Origin: Myxococcota bacterium
Lineage (GTDB): Bacteria > Myxococcota > JACRCW01
DNA length: 10,603 nt
Reading direction: 5' to 3'
NCBI GenBank assembly: GCA_040752415.1
Contig: JBFMGU010000329.1
Span: forward strand, 1-10,603
A program made the translations under genes and the position numbers. Position 1 is the stretch's first letter. Every line of letters begins with the position of its first letter. The notes under the pieces were generated by a model. The model searched no databases. It saw only the letters and a list, made by a program, of their open reading frames with translations, and was not told the origin of the DNA. Of the stretch, positions 1 to 10,603 are shown piece by piece.

Positions 1-1
1 T

Positions 2-181
2 CGTCGGAGACTCTGCGTGCCGGCGTCTCCGCCCCATGAGATGCCCGCGGCCGGCACTTTGGAATCCAAAGGTGCGGGCGCCGCTGCACCTTCTCACCGC
101 TCGCCGGCACCTGGGGGTCACGTCGGAGACTCTGCGTGCCGGCGTCTCCGCCCCATGAGATGCGCGCGGCCGGCACTTTGG
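2..181. repeat. 61-bp direct repeat (2..62 and 121..181) containing a GTGCCGGC...GCCGGCAC hairpin
   Basis: cgtcggagactctgcgtgccggcgtctccgccccatgagatgc(c/g)cgcggccggcactttgg occurs twice, 119 bp apart, with one mismatch. Confidence 0.9.
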
Positions 182-255
182 GAGTGCGGCCTGAAATGCC
201 GCTTTGGATCCTGCTCCGCTGCTCAACCAGAAGTCGTCACGGACTTCTTTTGGTT

Positions 256-558
256 TACAGTGATTCCCGTTGAAGTTGTCACGCCGTTTGCCTCCGTCTG
301 GCAGAGGATGCCCCGCTGGTCCGAGGGAAAGCGGCACTTCATGCCGCAGTCCGAAAGGGTGCGGGCACCGCTCCGATTCGTGAAATTGCGAGCGCCCGCA
401 CCCGTGCCACGTCGGGGGACGTGCCGGCCTGTCCACGAGAGCGAACGCTGCCGGCACTTTCGGACTGCGGCATGAAGTGCCGCTTTCCCTCGGACAACAC
501 GGCACCCTCTGCCAGACGCAGGCGAAGCGGCATGACAACTTCAACGGAAACCACTGTA
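256..558. repeat. Long inverted repeat (REPIN/MITE-like palindromic element), arms 256..357 and 457..558
   Basis: 319..357 (gtccgagggaaagcggcacttcatgccgcagtccgaaag) is the perfect reverse complement of 457..495. Imperfect complementarity extends outward to tacagtg (256) / cactgta (558). The spacer holds two further hairpins (gggtgcgggc...gcccgcaccc; gtgccggc...gccggcac). A degenerate extra copy of the core palindrome lies at ~171..210. Confidence 0.85.
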
Positions 559-1548
559 CACGCCCAGCTTCTCCCGGAGCGCGGCGGCGCCCAATCCCGG
601 TGAGCCGCGTCCCTCCGCCTCCTTCACCAACGCAACAATCGCCGCGTTCACCGTGGCTCGGGTCCCCACCTTTTCCGCCAAGCGCACCACCTCGCCATTG
701 AGCGCGTCGATCTCCGTCTTGCGCCCCCGCGCGAGATCGTCCCACATCGACGAGCGCGCCTGCGGATCCACGGTCAACATGGGCCGCGCGACGAGGGAGA
801 ACACCGCGTCCGGCAGCGTGAGCACCCAAGGAACCAGGCGCGGCGGCAGCGGCACGTCGAGACGGGGTTGGATCCCGGCAGCGGACACGGCGTCCAGGCC
901 CTCCCGCACGCACGCGGCCATGACGCGCCGGTAGTCGCGCTGCGAGAGCATCTCCTTGATGGGGATGTTGGCCAGCGCATTCACCGGGTTGTTGAGATTC
1001 ACCAACAGCTTGCCCCACAGCACGCCGCGCATGTCGTCGTGGGCTTCAATCTCGAGGCCCGCGTGGGACAGCGCGCGCACCAGCGGCATCACCGCTTCCA
1101 CCCGCTCGACGGCAAGCCGGCCCGAGGTGCCCTGGTGGAAATGCGCACCCGCGCGTCGCAGCACGTTGAAGGGGACCATGCCGGCCAGCACCCGTTGCTG
1201 GGGCAGCGCGGCCCGCAGCAGCTCCGGGTTGTTCACGCCGTTCTGGAAGCTGACCACCAGCGCGTCTCGTCGGAGCACGCCGGCCAGCGCCGCACCCGCG
1301 CTCGCCGTGTCACCACCCTTCACCGTCACCAGCACCACGTCACAATCCGCCAGCGCGGTGGGCGCAGTGGCCACTTCCAGGCGCAATGTCTGGTCAAAGC
1401 CGCGGTAGTCGGTGAGGTGCATTCCGTGCTGCGCCACCTCGTCGGCGAGCGACTGTCGTCCCACCAGCACCACCGGCACGCCACTGTGCTGCAGGCGACC
1501 GCCCAGGTAGCAACCGATGGCGCCGGCGCCCATGATTCCCACTTTCAT
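541..1548 (-). CDS. panE: 2-dehydropantoate 2-reductase (ketopantoate reductase, PanE/ApbA family), 335 aa
   Basis: N-terminal Rossmann motif MKVGIMGAGAIG; family motifs VTVK, FQNGV, WGKLLVNLNN (catalytic Lys) and SSMWDDLARGRKTEIDALNG (catalytic Glu). Start trimmed to ATG 1548, which overlaps the upstream stop (ATGA). Confidence 0.9.
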   Translation of the reverse strand: MKVGIMGAGAIGCYLGGRLQHSGVPVVLVGRQSLADEVAQHGMHLTDYRGFDQTLRLEVATAPTALADCDVVLVTVKGGDTASAGAALAGVLRRDALVVSFQNGVNNPELLRAALPQQRVLAGMVPFNVLRRAGAHFHQGTSGRLAVERVEAVMPLVRALSHAGLEIEAHDDMRGVLWGKLLVNLNNPVNALANIPIKEMLSQRDYRRVMAACVREGLDAVSAAGIQPRLDVPLPPRLVPWVLTLPDAVFSLVARPMLTVDPQARSSMWDDLARGRKTEIDALNGEVVRLAEKVGTRATVNAAIVALVKEAEGRGSPGLGAAALREKLGVYSGFR

Positions 1549-2534
1549 CGTCGAGAACCCTCCACCAGCGCGTCCGCAATCCGCTCCGCAATGGGGAAAC
1601 CCAGGTCCCGTTGCAGCCAGCCCCATTCCCCCGCGGGATTGACCTCCAGGAACACGTGACGACCTTCCGGGTCCACAATGAAGTCCAACGCCGCGGACAC
1701 CAGGCCCAGTCGCCGCATCAGGGCCAGCACGCGCTCCGTCTCGTCGTCAGGCAGCGTGTAGGGTGTCCAATCAATGCCTTCCCCGGGCTGGGTGAGCCGC
1801 CAGTCCACGCGACCGCGCCGGGACCCGCGCGTGTCGATGGCACCGGTGAACACCTCGCTCCCCACGACGACAACGCGCAGCTCACAGCGCTTCCCGACGG
1901 TGGCCTGGAAGATCTGCGGCGCGTAGCGCACGTCGTCGATGGCAGCGAGATCCGCCTCGGTGACCTCGGTGGTATAGAAGAATTCGCTCGTGCCCTGCAT
2001 GCTGACGGTGAGCACGCCCAGCAGTTTCGTGACCATGCGCCCGCCCAGCTCGGCGTGGAAGGCGCGGACCTCGTCGGGGTTGTTGGTGACGAGCGTGGGT
2101 GGAAGGGTGAAGCCCAGCTCCTGCGCCACGCGCAGCTGCAGCAGCTTGGATTCCGCGCGGGTGTTGGCCTGCAGCGTGTTCACCCAGAACGCGCCATCCA
2201 TCAACGACAGCGCATCCACCAGCGCGGTGCGTGATTCCCGACGACAATGCTGCACGTAGCGCGGGTCCATCGTCTCCGGCATGGCGCCGGGCCAGACGCG
2301 ACGGTTCCACACCGCGGGCACCTCCCGTAACGCGACGGCCCCGCGCGGCGTCCTGAGCACCATCTCCTCCCGACCCGAGCGGAACGAGACGCTGAGCGCG
2401 AGCTCGACGGGAAAACGGTCCGTGTCCACGCGCAACGCCGGCACCCCGCGGGAGACCAGCGCCTGCTCGACGAGGTCGATGGTGTAGTAGTCGCCGCTGT
2501 GGGTCAGCAGCAGGATGGGAGCGGACGTGGTCAC
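1545..2534 (-). CDS. mvdC: Microviridin-type ATP-grasp peptide maturase, MdnB/MvdC (macrolactam ligase)-like, 329 aa
   Basis: ILLLTHSGDYYTIDLV, DTDRFP, VWNRRVW, AESKLLQLRVA-GF-LPPTLVTNNP, MVTKLL, ELRVVVVG, VDWR, FLEVNPAGEWGWLQRDLGFPIA. The THSGD start and GEWG end recall MdnB/MvdC rather than MdnC/MvdD (TFSxD..., GEFFW). Lies next to a PFFARFL precursor. GTG start. Confidence 0.88.
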   Translation of the reverse strand: MTTSAPILLLTHSGDYYTIDLVEQALVSRGVPALRVDTDRFPVELALSVSFRSGREEMVLRTPRGAVALREVPAVWNRRVWPGAMPETMDPRYVQHCRRESRTALVDALSLMDGAFWVNTLQANTRAESKLLQLRVAQELGFTLPPTLVTNNPDEVRAFHAELGGRMVTKLLGVLTVSMQGTSEFFYTTEVTEADLAAIDDVRYAPQIFQATVGKRCELRVVVVGSEVFTGAIDTRGSRRGRVDWRLTQPGEGIDWTPYTLPDDETERVLALMRRLGLVSAALDFIVDPEGRHVFLEVNPAGEWGWLQRDLGFPIAERIADALVEGSRR

Positions 2535-2546
2535 GGGAGGAGGAAG

Positions 2547-2575
2547 CCCGCCCCACGCAGCTCACGTGAGGCGGG
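2547..2575 (-). promoter_or_regulatory. Intergenic GC-rich stem-loop between precursor and ligase genes (mRNA-stabilising hairpin or weak terminator)
   Basis: Minus-strand CCCGCCTCACG-tgagctg-CGTGGGGCGGG forms an 11-bp stem with one G-U pair, followed by a pyrimidine run (cttcctcctccc) but no U-tract. Confidence 0.5.
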
Positions 2576-2590
2576 TCGGCAGGGACCTGG

Positions 2591-4330
2591 TCAGCCCGGT
2601 CCGCCGCCGTCCTCGTTGTCGGAGGGATACTTCTCGGTGAACAGGTTGCCGCCGCGACCGGGGCCGCCCGCGCCGTCCTCGTTGTCGGACGGGAACTTCA
2701 TGGTGACCATCATGCCACCGCCGTCGCCACCGCCGTCCTCGTTGTCGGAGGGATACTTCGCGGTGGTCACCTCACCGACACCGCCGCCGGCATCCTCGTT
2801 GTCGGAGGGATAACGCTCCGTGACGATGTCGCCGATGGTGCCGCCACCAGCGTCCTCGCCGTCGGAGGGAGCCTTCATGGTGACCATCATGCCACCACCG
2901 TCGCCGGCGTCCTCGTTGTCGGACGGGTAACGCTCGGTCACGGCCCCGCCGCCACCGACGCCACCCGCGCCACCGCCGCCACCCGCGTCCTCGTTGTCGG
3001 AGGGATAACGCTCCGTGACGATGTCACCGATGGTGCCGCCACCACCGTCCTCGTTGTCGGATGGCGCCTTCATGGTGACCATCACGCCACCGCCGTCACC
3101 CGCGTCCTCGTTGTCGGAGGGATAGCGCTCGGTGACCGCTCCGCCGCCCATGCGCGGCACCGGCTCGCCGCCACCGTCCTCGTTGTCGGAGGGGAACTTG
3201 CGGGTCATCACCACTCCGCCCCCGTCGCCGCCGCCGTCCTCGTTGTCGGAGGGGGCCTTCATGGTGACCATCACGCCACCGCCACCCTCACCCGCGCCGC
3301 CATCCTCGTTGTCGGAGGGGAACTTGCGGGTCATCACCACGCCGCCACCGCCGTTGTCGGCACCGCCGTCCTCGGCGTCGGAGGGGAACTTCTTGGTGAC
3401 CGCGCCCACGTTCTGACCGGTCTCACCCACGGGCCCGTCCTCGTTGTCGGAGGGGTACTTCAGCGTGACCGCCCCGACGCCACCCTCGGCGCCGTCCTCG
3501 TTGTCGGAGGGCGCCTTCATGGTGACCATCATGCCGCCGCCCTCGCCGGGGCGCTTGCTGCCGCCGCCATCCTCGTTGTCGGACGGGTACTTCATGGTCA
3601 CCATGCGACCCACCTCGCCGCGCGCAACCTGGCCACGGTTCTGTCCCTCGAGGAAGCGCGCGAAGAACGGCTTCACCGTGTTCTCGTCGCCACCGAGCTG
3701 CTGCAGGGTCAGCTTCTCCGCGCCCTTGGGGTTGGCCGCGGTGTGGATCTGCTGCGCCGCGGTGAACGCCTTGGAGAACTCCTGCTGCGCCTGCGCGCCC
3801 TCGGGGCTGCCCTTCAGCTTCTGCTGCGCGACGGCCAGCGTCTGGTTCGCCACGTTCTGCATGAGCTGGGTGCGGTCGGTGAGCAGGCGTTCCACCACCT
3901 GGGCCCGCGGGTGCTCCGGCGCGTGCATCTGGAACGCCTTGCTGGTCTTGCGCAGCGCATCCAGCACGGCGGTCTGCGACTCCAGCGTGTGATCCGCGGC
4001 CTTCAACGCCGTGATCAGCTCCTTCTCGATGGCGCGCACCTCACGCGGCACGCTCTGCACCGCACCGGCCTTCTGCGCCGCCACGCGCGCGCCCACCGCG
4101 CCCGTCCCACCTTCCCGTCGCGCGGTCTGCTGCGGCGCCTTGGGGGTCTCCTTGCGACCCGCGGGAGCCTTCTTCTCGAACGCGTCCGACTTCTTCGCCG
4201 AGGCCTTGGCCTGCTGCGCCTTGCTGGTCTGCTTGGCGGGGGCCTTGGCGGTGCTCTTCTGGACCGTCGACTCCGACGGACGCTTGCTGCCCGCGCTCTG
4301 CTTGGTGGAATTGCGGCGGATGGAAGTCAT
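2591..4330 (-). CDS. mdnA: Giant multi-core microviridin/marinostatin-family graspetide precursor, 579 aa, 16 cores
   Basis: PFFARFL at aa 221-227 (nt 3650..3670), followed by 16 TxK/R-Y/F/A-PSD-x-ED units separated by Gly-rich linkers. GGAG Shine-Dalgarno 6 nt before ATG 4330. Adjacent ATP-grasp ligase. Confidence 0.92.
   Translation of the reverse strand: MTSIRRNSTKQSAGSKRPSESTVQKSTAKAPAKQTSKAQQAKASAKKSDAFEKKAPAGRKETPKAPQQTARREGGTGAVGARVAAQKAGAVQSVPREVRAIEKELITALKAADHTLESQTAVLDALRKTSKAFQMHAPEHPRAQVVERLLTDRTQLMQNVANQTLAVAQQKLKGSPEGAQAQQEFSKAFTAAQQIHTAANPKGAEKLTLQQLGGDENTVKPFFARFLEGQNRGQVARGEVGRMVTMKYPSDNEDGGGSKRPGEGGGMMVTMKAPSDNEDGAEGGVGAVTLKYPSDNEDGPVGETGQNVGAVTKKFPSDAEDGGADNGGGGVVMTRKFPSDNEDGGAGEGGGGVMVTMKAPSDNEDGGGDGGGVVMTRKFPSDNEDGGGEPVPRMGGGAVTERYPSDNEDAGDGGGVMVTMKAPSDNEDGGGGTIGDIVTERYPSDNEDAGGGGGAGGVGGGGAVTERYPSDNEDAGDGGGMMVTMKAPSDGEDAGGGTIGDIVTERYPSDNEDAGGGVGEVTTAKYPSDNEDGGGDGGGMMVTMKFPSDNEDGAGGPGRGGNLFTEKYPSDNEDGGGPG
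2609..3598 (-). repeat. In-frame tandem array of 16 core-peptide coding repeats
   Basis: (g/a)tcctcgttgtcgga-type unit (SDNED codons) recurs every ~57-78 bp, always in frame. First core 3569..3598, last core 2609..2638. Confidence 0.93.
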
Positions 4331-4468
4331 GTCAGGCTCCGGGTCTTGGGGACGTCGTGGAAGTCCTGCGTACCCGCATGCGCGCGGGTCGGAACAGGCC
4401 TTTGCGTAGCCTCGGAAACCGCGGGAAGCAATGGCCCCGAGCTGGACGCGCCGCTACCATGACACCCT

Positions 4469-4831
4469 GTGGCTTCCCCCAAGCGTCAGCGCGTCCTCGC
4501 CATCATCGCCACCGACCGCACCTTCGAGCGCGCGGAATATCGCGGTCGCGAGGTGTGGCAGGGGCGCTGCCTGCACTGCAACGCGTATCTCCTCGTCGAG
4601 CTGAGCGGGGAGGCCATCAGCCGCGCCACCATTGAGCACATCATCCCGCGCGTGCACGGCGGCACCGACGCGCCGGAGAACCTGGGCCTGGCCTGCGCGC
4701 GCTGCAACCAGGGCAAGGGGATGCGGCATGACCGCAACTTCAAGCGCGACCCGCGCGTCCAGGAGATGGTGGAGCGGCTGCTGCAACGTCGTCGTGAGCG
4801 CTGGCGCGACCCGGAGGAGGTGACGTCCTGA
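4469..4831 (+). CDS. HNH endonuclease family protein, 120 aa
   Basis: CLHC...ATIEHIIPRVHGGTDAPENLGLACARCNQGKG: CxxC zinc ligands flanking an H-N-N HNH motif. Confidence 0.88.
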   Translation: MASPKRQRVLAIIATDRTFERAEYRGREVWQGRCLHCNAYLLVELSGEAISRATIEHIIPRVHGGTDAPENLGLACARCNQGKGMRHDRNFKRDPRVQEMVERLLQRRRERWRDPEEVTS

Positions 4832-4878
4832 CGGGGTGACGGGTGGCCCCAGGATTCACGGCGTGGCATGAGCCTGCC

Positions 4879-5355
4879 ATGCGCTCCTTCCAACTGCTGA
4901 CCTGTCTCGCCTTCCTCGCCGTGAACCTGCCCGCCAGCGCGGAGGCGCCGGGCGCGGCCCCGGTGGTGGTGTCGTCGTCGACGGCGCCCATGCACGGCAT
5001 CCTCAACGGCAAGGGCTCCGCCACGCTGCTGCACAACGCGAGCACCGGCAGCAAGGAGGCGTCACTCAGCGTGCTGGTGCTGCAGGGTGGCGCGGAGGTG
5101 CCGGAGCACGTTCATGAGACGAGCGTGGAGCTGCTCTACGTGGAGGAGGGACGCGTGGAGATGGTGGTGGGTGGCAAGGCGGTGAGCGCCTCCGCCGGCG
5201 ACGCCATCCGCATCCCTGCGGGCGTGAAGCACTCCGCAAGGGTTCCGCCGGGCAACTCCGCGGCGCGCGCGGTGCAGGTGTACGTGGGGCCGGGTCCGGA
5301 GCAGCGTTTCACCGCCGGTCCCCGGCTCAACCCTCCGCCCATGCCAGGGAAGTGA
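4879..5355 (+). CDS. Secreted cupin-domain protein, 158 aa
   Basis: Signal-peptide-like MRSFQLLTCLAFLAVNLPASA; cupin motif 1 GAEVPEHVHETSVELLYVEEG and motif 2 GDAIRIPAGVKHS. Start trimmed to ATG 4879. Confidence 0.85.
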   Translation: MRSFQLLTCLAFLAVNLPASAEAPGAAPVVVSSSTAPMHGILNGKGSATLLHNASTGSKEASLSVLVLQGGAEVPEHVHETSVELLYVEEGRVEMVVGGKAVSASAGDAIRIPAGVKHSARVPPGNSAARAVQVYVGPGPEQRFTAGPRLNPPPMPGK

Positions 5356-9333: not shown

Positions 9334-10518
9334 TCAGACGGTGACGAAGGGGACGCTGGGCGTCTCGTGCAGGCGGGATTCCTGCTGGTAGCTGCGGAAG
9401 TAGTGGAAGATGTAGCCCATGCGCTCGTCGTACTTCGACCAGTCCGAGGCGTCGCTGTGCTGGGTGGACTGCGGGTCCTGGCCAAAGCGACGCGCCTCCG
9501 CGTTCATCTCCGGCACGGCGTTGAAGCTGGTGAGCTCGAAGGGCGCGGCCTTCTGCACGTCCTGCCCCAGCACCAGGGATTGGCCGGGGATGTTGAGGCG
9601 CATCTGGTCGGTGACGTTGTCGTTGTAGCTCATGCCGGGCATGGCGCCCTTCACGAAGCGGTCCGCCACCTGCTGCTCATGCTTGGCGACGAGGAAGTTG
9701 CCCTGGAACATCAGCTCCGCGCGCCGGTTCTCCGCCTCGTAGCCCTTGGCGTCCTTCAGCGTCATGGCCTCGTGGTAGGAGCGGAACGCGTTCTGCAGGT
9801 CCGGCTTCCCCTCGAGCGCGGGCTGCTTCACGAAGTCGTCGATCATCTGCTGACCGCGCGCGGGGTCCTTCCTCCACGACGTGTCATTCTGGAAGGTGTT
9901 GATGAAGCGGCTGAAGTGCGGCGCGATGTCGCCGAAGATGGCCTGGTTGCCCTTGGCCACGGCGTCCGCGGCGTCGTCCTTCTTCCAGTTCTGCACCGGC
10001 TTGGTGACGAAGTTGACGAGGCCACCCACCGGGGAGTCACTGCCGGGCAGCTTGACGTCGACCTCCTTGCGGATGACGCCACCGGCGGTGTTGCTGGCCC
10101 ACTTGCCGAACGTGAGCCAGTTGGCGTTGTCCTTCCCCACCAGGCTGGCCATGCCCTCGCTCAGCTCATGGTAGCCGCGCGTGATGGCGTAGTTGCGCTG
10201 CACCGGGTCCTTCATGTCCGCCACGCGACGCACGTGCGCCTCGTCGAGATACGCGCTCTGGAATCTGGGCTCCGCGCGGGGGCCGCCCACGTCGGTGGCC
10301 AGCCGCTGCTGCAGCATCTGGGCCCGCATGTCATGACGGGACACGGTGCGGGAGTCCTGCTGGCGCTGCGGATCCACGGGAGCGCGTGCGGCGGGCTCGG
10401 TGGTGCGGGCCGCGGGCTGTGAGGTGGTGGTCTGCGCCGGCTGGGCGGGCTTCGCCGTCGACGTGGAGGTGGTGGCCTGGGTTTGAACCGGTCGTGATCC
10501 GCCGCCGTCAACGCGCAT
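9334..10518 (-). CDS. Hypothetical protein, DUF2515-like domain after a low-complexity T/S/P/Q/A N-terminus, 394 aa
   Basis: Long ORF with strong GC3 codon pattern. Motifs RNYAITRGY, ANWLTFGKWAS, GNQAIFGDI, HEQ and DWSKYDERMGYI resemble DUF2515-type families (from memory, unverified). Start chosen at ATG 10518 (MRVDGGG). Confidence 0.7.
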   Translation of the reverse strand: MRVDGGGSRPVQTQATTSTSTAKPAQPAQTTTSQPAARTTEPAARAPVDPQRQQDSRTVSRHDMRAQMLQQRLATDVGGPRAEPRFQSAYLDEAHVRRVADMKDPVQRNYAITRGYHELSEGMASLVGKDNANWLTFGKWASNTAGGVIRKEVDVKLPGSDSPVGGLVNFVTKPVQNWKKDDAADAVAKGNQAIFGDIAPHFSRFINTFQNDTSWRKDPARGQQMIDDFVKQPALEGKPDLQNAFRSYHEAMTLKDAKGYEAENRRAELMFQGNFLVAKHEQQVADRFVKGAMPGMSYNDNVTDQMRLNIPGQSLVLGQDVQKAAPFELTSFNAVPEMNAEARRFGQDPQSTQHSDASDWSKYDERMGYIFHYFRSYQQESRLHETPSVPFVTV

Positions 10519-10603
10519 GGGTAGCCCCAGAAGCAGGTGCGTCAGTATCGACTCTGGTTCCGGGCCCGTCCACATCCGTCGGACAACTGACGGGTGCGCC
10601 CAT

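Follow-up and report, generated by a model that had tools for sequence, protein, structure and literature searches.

A probable microviridin/marinostatin-class graspetide precursor with 16 cores from a high-GC, non-cyanobacterial genome

The stretch of DNA analysed here (hereafter the window; 10,603 nt) carries on its reverse strand a precursor gene, an ATP-grasp ligase gene immediately downstream, and panE, and a second ATP-grasp ligase gene is found on another contig (C232) of the same draft genome. The features are listed below by coordinate and strand.

1..181, no strand: tandem repeat of about 120 nt, one and a half units, shared with the end of contig C232
541..1548, reverse: panE (2-dehydropantoate 2-reductase; 432.6 bits for NF006083, whose cut-off is 371)
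1545..2534, reverse: lactam-forming ATP-grasp ligase (MdnB/MvdC type; 329 aa), located 56 nt downstream of the precursor gene
2591..4330, reverse: precursor gene, a single ORF of 579 aa with an ATG start, encoding a long leader followed by 16 microviridin-type cores
2609..3598, reverse: array of 16 decapeptide cores (aa 245–574), in which position 3 is Lys (12 cores) or Arg (4 cores)
3650..3670, reverse: PFFARFL, the ligase-recognition motif (aa 221–227), a single exact occurrence
3731..4048, reverse: conserved helical leader domain (aa 95–200; AF2 block pLDDT 92–97)
4061..4330, reverse: Lys/Ala/Gln/Ser-rich leader N-terminus (aa 1–90), predicted to be disordered (AF2 block pLDDT 43–62)
G000:C232:9595-10587, forward: ATP-grasp ligase of the MdnC/MvdD type, outside the precursor operon on the other contig

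Graspetides are ribosomal peptides cross-linked by ATP-grasp ligases, and the gene at 2591..4330 very probably encodes a genuine precursor of their microviridin/marinostatin class in an extreme multi-core form. The translated product matched Pfam PF12559 (Inhibitor_I10) with an E-value of 7.3e-55 (183.5 bits; cut-off, 21) and NCBIfam NF033738 with an E-value of 4.1e-72 (238.8 bits; cut-off, 26), and the regular expression T..[YFA]PSD.ED found exactly 16 cores in it. The initial annotation, made from the letters alone, had described one 579-aa ORF with a single PFFARFL motif and 16 cores in a given order, had assigned it to the microviridin/marinostatin family, and had envisaged a non-cyanobacterial high-GC host; the recount and the profile search agree with the first two points, and the GC content (65–71%) and the most likely source, Myxococcota, with the third. 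A GGAG tetramer lies 6 nt upstream of the ATG at 4330; translation may instead start at a later GTG ahead of the conserved leader domain. A sigma-70 promoter scan of window positions 1–5000 returned 0 sites, and Rfam models gave no match in the whole window.

The cores follow one another in the order TMKY, TMKA, TLKY, TKKF, TRKF, TMKA, TRKF, and TERY (cores 1–8) and TMKA, TERY, TERY, TMKA, TERY, TAKY, TMKF, and TEKY (cores 9–16), each completed by PSDNED except in core 4 (PSDAED) and core 12 (PSDGED), just as first listed, with PSD occurring in all 16. In the resulting consensus, T1-x2-(K/R)3-(Y/F/A)4-P5-S6-D7-x8-E9-D10, the residues T, P, S, D, E, and D are present in 16 of 16 cores, and T, P, S, D, and D are also constant in the 18 (alignment A1) and 23 (A2) aligned homologues. 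The final residue is invariably Asp, where the lactam acceptor of microviridin J is Glu; the consensus allows either. Position 2, which corresponds to the protease S1-pocket residue of microviridin J, is variable (Met in six cores, Glu in five, Arg in two, and Leu, Lys, and Ala in one each). At the DNA level, Tandem Repeats Finder detected periods of 57–66, 117–126, and 195 nt in the precursor gene, pairwise identity among the 75-nt units that surround the cores is only 53–89%, and the six invariant core residues use differing synonymous codons in 129 of 720 pairwise comparisons. Judged from this DNA divergence combined with the synonymous retention of the invariant residues, the units are real, diverged repeats under selection at the protein level.

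The leader, about 220 aa long, has three parts: a basic N-terminus predicted to be disordered, a helical domain predicted to be folded, and PFFARFL. Residues 1–90 contain no conserved columns in A1 or A2. The helical domain, modelled by AF2 with the 23-sequence alignment, is predicted to form helices at aa 96–111, 116–136, 141–174, and 179–199, and its residues Q119, L126, and R153 are invariant in A2 (23 homologues). An HMM of this domain matched nine precursor ORFs in related loci, and a phmmer search of 1.84 billion representatives, made with a single-sequence query that is weak for a fast-evolving domain, gave only 5 matches with E-values up to 0.001, including a repetitive protein of 6976 aa. 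Foldseek found nothing in the PDB for the leader model at E ≤ 0.001, and the best matches of a wide VIA-align search (Z 8.7) were generic helical bundles and designed proteins, below the level that is meaningful for helical bundles. In the recognition motif, P221, F222, F223, R225, F226, and L227 are invariant in both alignments; PFFARFL is described in sections of PMC7823629 as the activating leader motif required for the ligases. A complex prediction for the window ligase with the helical domain alone (aa 92–212) gave a score of 0.00 and weighs neither way.

The ligase adjoining the precursor gene scored 365.5 bits against TIGR04185 (MvdC) and 267.9 bits against TIGR04184 (MvdD), and its PDB matches were 5ig8 (286.9 bits), AMdnB (7m4s; 281 bits), and 5ig9 (187.8 bits); the MvdC model and AMdnB fit it more closely than the MvdD model and CdnC do. 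On this point the initial annotation has to be corrected: the adjoining enzyme is of the lactam-forming and not of the ester-forming type, the precursor's contig has no ester-forming ligase, and the MdnC/MvdD type is encoded on C232. With the pattern reversed, the C232 enzyme scored 394.1 bits against TIGR04184 versus 265.8 bits against the MvdC model, with 5ig9 as its best PDB match (282.7 bits) and 221.9 bits against CdnC (7mgv). Each of these best-matching models nevertheless has a higher equivalog cut-off (425 for TIGR04185 and 475 for TIGR04184), and we therefore regard both enzymes as divergent from their cyanobacterial counterparts, with a regiochemistry that is predicted from sequence. 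Both ligase genes are intact: in 20-sequence alignments of the respective types, the window ligase retains 47 of 47 invariant columns (A3) and the C232 ligase 71 of 71. A quick tree of 100 ligases placed both in non-cyanobacterial subclades whose precursors have 6–19 cores, the window ligase falling in the B-type many-core subclade. The pairing of both ligase types with such precursors appears to be the rule, since the gene order precursor, B-type, C-type on one strand was found in 45 of 78 related loci.

Contig C232 probably abuts the precursor contig, a linkage that rests on a repeat overlap and not on assembled sequence. Window positions 1–181 are 98.9% identical to C232:11793-11973, compared with at most 88% for other matches in the genome, and positions 1–126 are exactly C232[-215:-90]; no exact suffix-prefix overlap of at least 15 nt was detected between any contig end and the window ends. 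If joined in this way, the MdnC/MvdD-type gene would probably lie about 2.9 kb from the precursor locus, across the contig break and in convergent orientation. In the three closest genomes (G001–G003), matches to panE, the peptidoglycan-binding protein, and the HAD phosphatase, compared for synteny across the C232-C256 junction, lie on unrelated contigs or are missing. The ATG of panE overlaps the stop codon of the window ligase (ATGA), and panE is probably co-transcribed with the ligase and probably stands outside the pathway; a tailoring role for it was considered and rejected, as it is the sole copy in the genome and has no homologue in the 78 related loci. For a neighbouring 413-aa protein, the best score in a protein-atlas search was 0.84, which is noise level.

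Maturation of the chain can be proposed by analogy with the characterised MdnA/B/C and AMdnA/AMdnC systems. According to sections of PMC7823629, the two esters are formed by MdnC/MvdD before MdnB/MvdC closes the lactam, the MdnB type requiring the bicyclic product of the MdnC type, and absence of the amide gives the marinostatin type; a part of PMC5934393 describes how AMdnC processes three cores, and four in an engineered substrate, distributively from one leader. Similarly, the single PFFARFL helix would bind and switch on both ligases here, although the cores extend up to about 350 residues away from it, a range much greater than that of the three or four cores examined in experiments. The MdnC-type enzyme, working distributively on the flexible chain, would form Thr1–Asp7 and Ser6–Glu9 esters in each core, and the MdnB-type enzyme would then add a Lys3–Asp10 amide, with Asp10 as the predicted acceptor, in the 12 cores that have Lys. 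In the four TERY cores, Arg occupies the position where the lactam Lys should be, and these would stay bicyclic and marinostatin-like. Full maturation would comprise 32 esters and 12 amides, equivalent to 44 water losses (about −792 Da); the two to three losses per core foreseen in the initial annotation would hold at up to three for the Lys cores, but only at two for the TERY cores. As position 5 of microviridin sits in the S1 pocket and sets specificity (PMC7823629, in part), the varied residues at position 2 of the present cores suggest a mixture of 10 different kinds of serine-protease-inhibitor cage, whose predicted specificities differ.

Comparison with known systems brings out both likenesses and differences. 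The Anabaena sp. PCC 7120 system AMdnA/AMdnB/AMdnC (class II), as described in sections of PMC5934393, likewise joins one PFFARFL-type leader and several TxKxPSDx(D/E)(D/E) cores in a single polypeptide, pairs a B-type with a C-type ATP-grasp ligase, and, as predicted here, lets one leader serve several cores distributively, and its AMdnB is among the matches of the window ligase given above; it has, however, three cores and a short leader, in contrast to the 16 cores and the long leader with a predicted helical domain found here, where the ligases belong to a separate non-cyanobacterial subclade and the operon is split. The class II precursors as a whole combine a single leader with tandem cores, as the present one does, but their cores number up to five (Ahmed et al. 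2017, as summarised in a part of PMC7823629). Microviridins J, B, and L (MdnA-MdnB-MdnC = MvdE-MvdC-MvdD, class I) share with the present system the leader motif, the core motif, the two ligase types (here encoded on separate contigs), the predicted tricyclic cage, and, as far as parts of the literature on them go, an S1 specificity residue that follows the ester Thr. Their precursors differ in having a single core within 45–55 aa and a C-terminal motif that is usually DWEE or DWEEY instead of DNED, and they are accompanied by a GNAT acetyltransferase and an ABC transporter, neither of which occurs among the eight ORFs scanned in the window.

Marinostatin (bicyclic, ester-only, from Alteromonas) carries Arg in its core in place of the lactam Lys, as do the four TERY cores, and the PFFARFL leader is common to both. 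The marinostatin type is nevertheless tied, in the part of the literature covering it, to missing core Lys and to absence of MdnB, whereas an MdnB-type ligase adjoins the precursor gene here and only 4 of the 16 cores lack Lys; with Lys kept in the other 12, bicyclic and tricyclic units would come from one chain. Chryseoviridin (CdnA1-3/CdnC, Chryseobacterium) is also a multi-core microviridin-like graspetide from outside the cyanobacteria, reportedly made with a single dual-function ester ligase and with core topologies differing from those here. Plesiocin, thuringinin, and corallotide resemble the predicted product in having several cyclised repeats per chain, and sections of PMC13097080 report that the potency of plesiocin rises with repeat number and that corallotide derives from a precursor of about 22 kDa with five modified repeats in a myxobacterium; these peptides have other core motifs, ligase clades, and hairpin or isopeptide topologies, with 3–5 repeats.

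The same chemistry might also lead to a different end product, if the modified protein is left uncut and serves as one polyvalent, bead-on-a-string inhibitor, or if its trimming is left entirely to the proteases it encounters; we hold this to be a real possibility, though on balance a doubtful one. Class II clusters normally encode a membrane protein with a C39 peptidase (Ahmed et al. 2017, as summarised in a part of PMC7823629), and here the C39 domain PF03412 had 0 matches in the genome (96.8% complete; the control matched 7 of 14 named genomes) and none in the window ORFs. Moreover, no dedicated peptidase, exporter, or acetyltransferase gene lies on the contig, no peptidase or exporter is present in the compact three-gene locus of a relative (G034), and the linkers between the cores, Gly-rich and 9–16 residues long, have no obvious conserved cleavage context. 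The repeat-dependent potency of plesiocin noted above also fits an uncut chain, as does the inhibitory activity against proteases that bicyclic or leader-bearing microviridins still possess, according to PMC7823629 in part. The same source, in the sections concerned, presents the isolated microviridins and marinostatins as short free peptides without exception, and describes heterologous hosts that free microviridin with non-specific proteases, so that a missing dedicated peptidase proves little; furthermore, an uncut 579-aa protein without a signal peptide would have to leave the cell.

Two other explanations question the integrity of the locus rather than the fate of its product. In the first, which we consider improbable, the operon is disrupted and decaying, a rearrangement having taken the ester ligase away and fused the rest to panE, so that the cores are un- or poorly modified. 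The order seen in 45 of 78 loci is indeed broken here, panE follows the B-type ligase with the ATGA overlap, a panE neighbour occurs in 0 of 78 related loci, and the MdnB type depends on the bicyclic product of the MdnC type (PMC7823629, in part). The 1.7-kb precursor ORF is nevertheless open with its cross-linking residues kept in 16 of 16 cores, both ligases retain all family-invariant columns, and the C-type gene, though displaced, falls in the same many-core lineage and is probably only about 2.9 kb away. The second, to which we attach a similarly small likelihood, regards the core number as an assembly artefact, the true gene having fewer or more repeats or being chimeric. The count of 16 comes from one draft assembly (520 contigs; estimated contamination, 4.29%), in which two unit pairs are 88–89% identical inside a 195-nt higher-order repeat that short reads could collapse; most unit pairs, however, are only 53–80% identical and hence divergent enough to assemble, the frame is open across all 16 units, and 13–19 cores occur in independent assemblies of other organisms. 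Chance likeness of the motifs in a non-RiPP Gly/Asp-rich repeat protein, compatible with the strongly biased composition of the C-terminal 359 residues (93 Gly and 39 Asp), has practically no probability left and is effectively refuted by HMM E-values of 1e-55 to 1e-72, by a leader motif just ahead of the first core with a cognate ligase 56 nt downstream, and by the same three-gene arrangement, which recurs in 45 of 78 related loci.

What the gene encodes is, then, a genuine many-core variant, as yet uncharacterised, within a known RiPP class, and related loci show that it does not stand alone. More than five cores were counted in 35 of the 78 best related loci of species genomes and at least 12 in 14 of them, with a maximum of 19–20, the many-core loci being distributed over several phyla, mostly uncultured; among 53 long database homologues, 12 have 13–16 cores. 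The initial annotation had called the gene likely undescribed and highly multiplexed, noting that homologues showing the architecture to be already described and common would speak against this. Its remark that characterised precursors are short, with one or a few cores, is borne out by the 1–5 cores given in parts of PMC7823629 and PMC5934393, and no microviridin precursor with more than five cores was found described in the literature searched, although Ahmed 2017, Zhao 2021, Ramesh 2021, and Lee 2020 may describe longer ones. The architecture itself is recurrent in public data, as the counts above indicate, so that "undescribed" holds only for the literature searched.

These observations lead us to suggest tentatively, giving it slightly less than an even chance, that the window locus belongs to a many-core microviridin lineage with long, partly folded leaders, a mixed-cage product, and a role of its own for the leader domain. 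Such a lineage would occur in at least six phyla, mostly of uncultured bacteria, while being absent from the literature searched, and its precursors would be polyproteins of 300–600 aa with 6–20 cores, in which one recognition helix serves cores hundreds of residues off. In the present member, cages of two kinds would arise from one chain, tricyclic ones of the microviridin type and bicyclic ones of the marinostatin type, and among their six different S1 residues would be Glu, which is not known as the S1 residue of any characterised microviridin. The result would be a gene-encoded cocktail of protease inhibitors with a broad spectrum, or a polyvalent inhibitor, and the folded leader domain might, for example, serve as a scaffold for the long substrate or keep it soluble. 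Microviridins, the founding members of the graspetides, attract interest as tunable serine-protease inhibitors, and guidance of several cores by one leader has so far been known from a three-core substrate and engineered ones of up to four cores. A natural 16-core substrate raises the questions of how far the leader helix reaches, whether processing is distributive and N-to-C, what the folded leader domain does, and whether the cages are cut apart or act together as one chain; for applications, a single expression experiment with one gene and two ligases would supply ten different inhibitor cages. A many-core lineage would also expose a blind spot of length-limited RiPP mining, a large survey having kept only precursor clusters with most members of at most 150 aa (PMC8939145, in the part describing its selection). 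In the list of homologues, one long, few-core member already carries NCBI's family name.

The window is the entire contig C256 (10,603 bp; GC content, 65–71%, in keeping with the high-GC host claimed by the initial annotation) of an 11.0-Mb draft genome in 520 contigs. The genes considered here, including one on another contig of the same genome (C232), are as follows.

2591–4330, minus strand: precursor, 579 aa, a single ORF
1545–2534, minus strand: predicted ATP-grasp ligase of the B type (MdnB/MvdC, lactam-forming), 56 nt 3' of the precursor
541–1548, minus strand: panE, 2-dehydropantoate 2-reductase (NF006083, 432.6 bits; cut-off, 371)
4469–4831, plus strand: stand-alone HNH endonuclease, 120 aa (PF14279, E 2.3e-12)
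9334–10575, minus strand: 413-aa ORF with a Thr/Pro/Ala-rich N-terminus, searched against Pfam and NCBIfam
C232:9595–10587, plus strand: predicted C-type (MdnC/MvdD, ester-forming) ATP-grasp ligase, second-best TIGR04185 match in the genome

The precursor, with a GGAG 6 nt 5' of its ATG, contains exactly one PFFARFL motif (aa 221–227) and exactly 16 cores of the pattern T..[YFA]PSD.ED (aa 245–574), which are joined by Gly-rich linkers of 9–16 residues; the ORF, motif, and core number claimed by the initial annotation were thus borne out, down to the order of the cores and the exceptions among them. The search with microviridin precursor models that it had proposed gave 183.5 bits for Pfam PF12559 (cut-off, 21) and 238.8 bits for NCBIfam NF033738 ('microviridin/marinostatin family tricyclic proteinase inhibitor'; cut-off, 26). 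Because Tandem Repeats Finder detected periods of 57–66, 117–126, and 195 nt, the 75-nt core units are only 53–89% identical in pairs, and the invariant core residues show synonymous codon differences in 129 of 720 pairwise comparisons, the repeats are judged to be old and no product of assembly stutter.

The core count across homologues, also proposed at the outset, was obtained in two ways. Searching 5.8 billion proteins through a word index, with lengths limited to 318–1014 aa, brought up 53 homologues, of which 12 have 13–16 strict cores and 13 have at least ten. Scanning the prokaryotes with one genome for each species yielded 313 confirmed stretches, from which the 78 best loci were retained; as the query carries 16 cores, their ranking is biased towards many-core genes. 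In these 78 loci, the largest precursor ORF has more than five cores in 35, at least ten in 18, and at least 12 in 14, the maximum being 19 strict or 20 loose cores (L084). The many-core loci are labelled as MAGs of Myxococcota, Planctomycetota, Vulcanimicrobiota/Eremiobacterota, Rokubacteria, Burkholderiales, Arenicellales, Acidobacteriota, and others; the cyanobacterial loci among the 78 have 2–5 cores. In the host phylum, most likely Myxococcota, NF033738 has matches in 46 of the 401 genomes sampled (the window's own counted), and in 29 loci from the positive genomes two cores occurred in 19 precursors, with a maximum of ten. The species genomes include one other member of the host's family and two more of its class. 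The many-core form is a recurring natural lineage and no one-off.

The chemistry and family of the precursor are already known, and its departures from characterised systems are its scale, long folded leader, mixed Lys/Arg cores, and split operon. Class II precursors are credited with 'up to five core peptides' in the review PMC7823629, with reference to Ahmed 2017, and AMdnA has three cores (PMC5934393). A large survey used 2016 genomes and admitted precursor clusters only if most members were ≤150 aa, and those myxobacterial microviridin precursors that were looked at in its supplement have two cores (PMC8939145). A full-text literature search returned no microviridin precursor with more than five cores, within a coverage that excludes Ahmed 2017, Lee 2020, Ramesh 2021, and Zhao 2021, which may say more. 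The multiplexed architecture, which the initial annotation had called likely undescribed, thus lacks a description in the literature searched, but its recurrence in the loci with at least 12 cores shows that it is not singular.

Side architectures were also seen. The largest relatives seen, the precursors of L084 7820–9400 (Burkholderiales MAG label; 19–20 cores) and L049 7766–9200 (Eremiobacterota MAG label; 17 cores), have PFFGHLL in place of PFFARFL and a 'VKVRADDD(N/T)GPPMQ' segment repeated in several linkers. Among the long database homologues, P0020–P0053 have ~230 aa ahead of the first core, where no PFF-type motif was found, only 1–8 cores, and then a C-terminal extension of conserved length (~108–131 aa in 26 of the 31 proteins of this kind, longer in the others), and may represent a different embedding of microviridin-like cores in a larger protein. 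In the homologue alignment A1, a ~200-aa insert separates PFFARFL from the first core in P0001–P0003 and 430–547 aa follow the last core in P0014–P0016, so that extra domains seem to have been plugged into precursors at several places.

The PFFARFL motif lies at aa 221 here, in contrast to roughly 20–40 in short precursors (e.g., supplement file 2 of PMC8939145). An AlphaFold2 model of aa 1–260, built on a 23-sequence alignment, predicts disorder in aa 1–90, four helices in aa 95–200 (block pLDDT, 92–97), and a PFFARFL helix in aa 216–235 that is of low confidence alone; Q119, L126, and R153 are invariant among the 23 homologues. Structure searches with the helical domain returned generic helical bundles only. 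Its HMM matched 9 precursor ORFs among loci L021–L127, namely in L032, L021, L035 (= L113), L062, L099, L056, and L023 (L099 and L044 are apparently the same contig). By this distribution, the domain is a marker of the sub-lineage that includes the window's ligase, and not of all many-core precursors.

The ligase adjoining the precursor scored 365.5 bits with the MvdC model and 267.9 with the MvdD model, both below the equivalog cut-offs, and 286.9 with 5ig8, 281 with 7m4s ('AMdnB protein'), 187.8 with 5ig9, and 162.2 with CdnC among solved structures. Since MvdD/MdnC forms two esters and MdnB/MvdC then closes the lactam (PMC7823629), these similarities point to an enzyme of the lactam type. 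Its stop codon shares ATGA (1545–1548) with the panE ATG, so that a housekeeping gene of the CoA pathway seems to be translationally coupled to the RiPP operon. A role of panE as a tailoring enzyme was rejected, as the window copy is its sole homologue in the genome and none occurs in the best 78 related loci; we take panE for a housekeeping gene that came to be transcribed with the operon.

Precursor, B-type, and C-type genes lie in this order on one strand in 45 of the 78 best loci; the others have B-type only (3), C-type only (4), three weak matches (1), or none (25, many ending at contig ends). Thus, the window order of precursor, B-type, and panE is a broken version of this rule. The TIGR04185 search of the genome revealed four ATP-grasp genes. 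The C232 ligase scored 394.1 bits with TIGR04184 versus 265.8 with TIGR04185, and 282.7, 221.9, and 192.4 bits with 5ig9, CdnC, and AMdnB, respectively, by which it is judged to be of the MvdD type. The B-type and C-type enzymes retain 47/47 and 71/71 invariant columns of their respective 20-sequence alignments, and both look functional. In a quick IQ-TREE analysis of 100 ligases (SH-aLRT support), B-type and C-type are split (92 and 96), and each is divided into a cyanobacterial subclade (2–5 cores) and a non-cyanobacterial one (6–19 cores; 88 and 93). The window ligase falls in the many-core B subclade next to L032 and L021 (91) and the C232 ligase in the many-core C subclade; they look like a cognate pair. 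Two further, more distant ATP-grasp genes of the RiPP-maturase kind (TIGR04185), G000:C65:17763–18404 (87.7 bits) and G000:C514:12050–12655 (67.5), hint at additional graspetide loci in this genome.

C232 terminates 1.4 kb past its ligase gene, inside a ~120-nt tandem repeat. No exact overlap was found between contig ends and the window ends, and in the three nearest genomes the matches to panE, the peptidoglycan-binding protein, and the HAD phosphatase fall on unrelated contigs or are absent. Because window 1–181 is 98.9% identical to C232:11793–11973 in the same orientation (≤88% for other genome matches to window 1–200), and window 1–126 equals C232[-215:-90] letter for letter before the sequences branch, C232 quite probably continues into C256; we read the branching as the trace of a de Bruijn assembler with k = 127 at a repeat exit. 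If so, the C-type ligase would lie ~2.9 kb from the B-type one in convergent orientation, with a peptidoglycan-binding protein gene, the repeat array, and panE between them. The window starts with the ~120-nt tandem repeat (1–181), followed by a ~310-nt element of nested inverted repeats (253–561; one 39-nt arm pair 100% complementary); related copies in 106 of 520 contigs, often at contig ends, look like a REP/MITE-like family fragmenting the assembly. On C232, the stretch G000:C232:9595–11572 (= L002 1495–3472) holds the ligase and, 3' of it on the same strand, the gene for a 283-aa protein with a peptidoglycan-binding domain, whose C-terminal part has a His...Gly-Cys-Ile motif reminiscent, by eye, of L,D-transpeptidases; a divergent HAD phosphatase gene lies upstream.

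By analogy with characterised systems, the single PFFARFL helix would be bound by each ligase; the C-type enzyme would then make the Thr1–Asp7 and Ser6–Glu9 esters, one core after another, and the B-type enzyme would afterwards close Lys3–Asp10. AMdnC processes three natural and four engineered cores distributively, favouring the N-to-C direction only loosely (PMC5934393). Position 3 is Lys in 12 cores and Arg in four, the TERY cores, which by the same analogy could become bicyclic only, as in marinostatin. Arg is rare at this position: of the 318 cores of 27 other ORFs with eight or more cores, 6 have it, and Lys and Arg cores are mixed in only two of these ORFs. Core position 2 (Met 6, Glu 5, Arg 2, Leu 1, Lys 1, and Ala 1, giving ten distinct decapeptides) corresponds to microviridin position 5, which fills the S1 pocket and whose exchange redirects inhibition, with Met targeting subtilisin, Leu elastase, Arg trypsin, and Tyr chymotrypsin (PMC7823629).

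The HNH gene is divergent from the precursor, 138 nt apart, with no obvious partner gene. Among it and the remaining contig genes (a cupin, SemiSWEET, a 1183-aa kinase-STAND-TPR protein, and the 413-aa protein, which matched no Pfam or NCBIfam family and reached only noise level in protein-atlas searches), no known microviridin accessory gene was found. No peptidase, ABC transporter, or GNAT gene is among the eight scanned ORFs of the contig, and a profile search found no C39 peptidase domain (PF03412) in the genome, which is 96.8% complete; the compact locus of the relative G034 likewise consists of the three genes alone, flanked by housekeeping genes.
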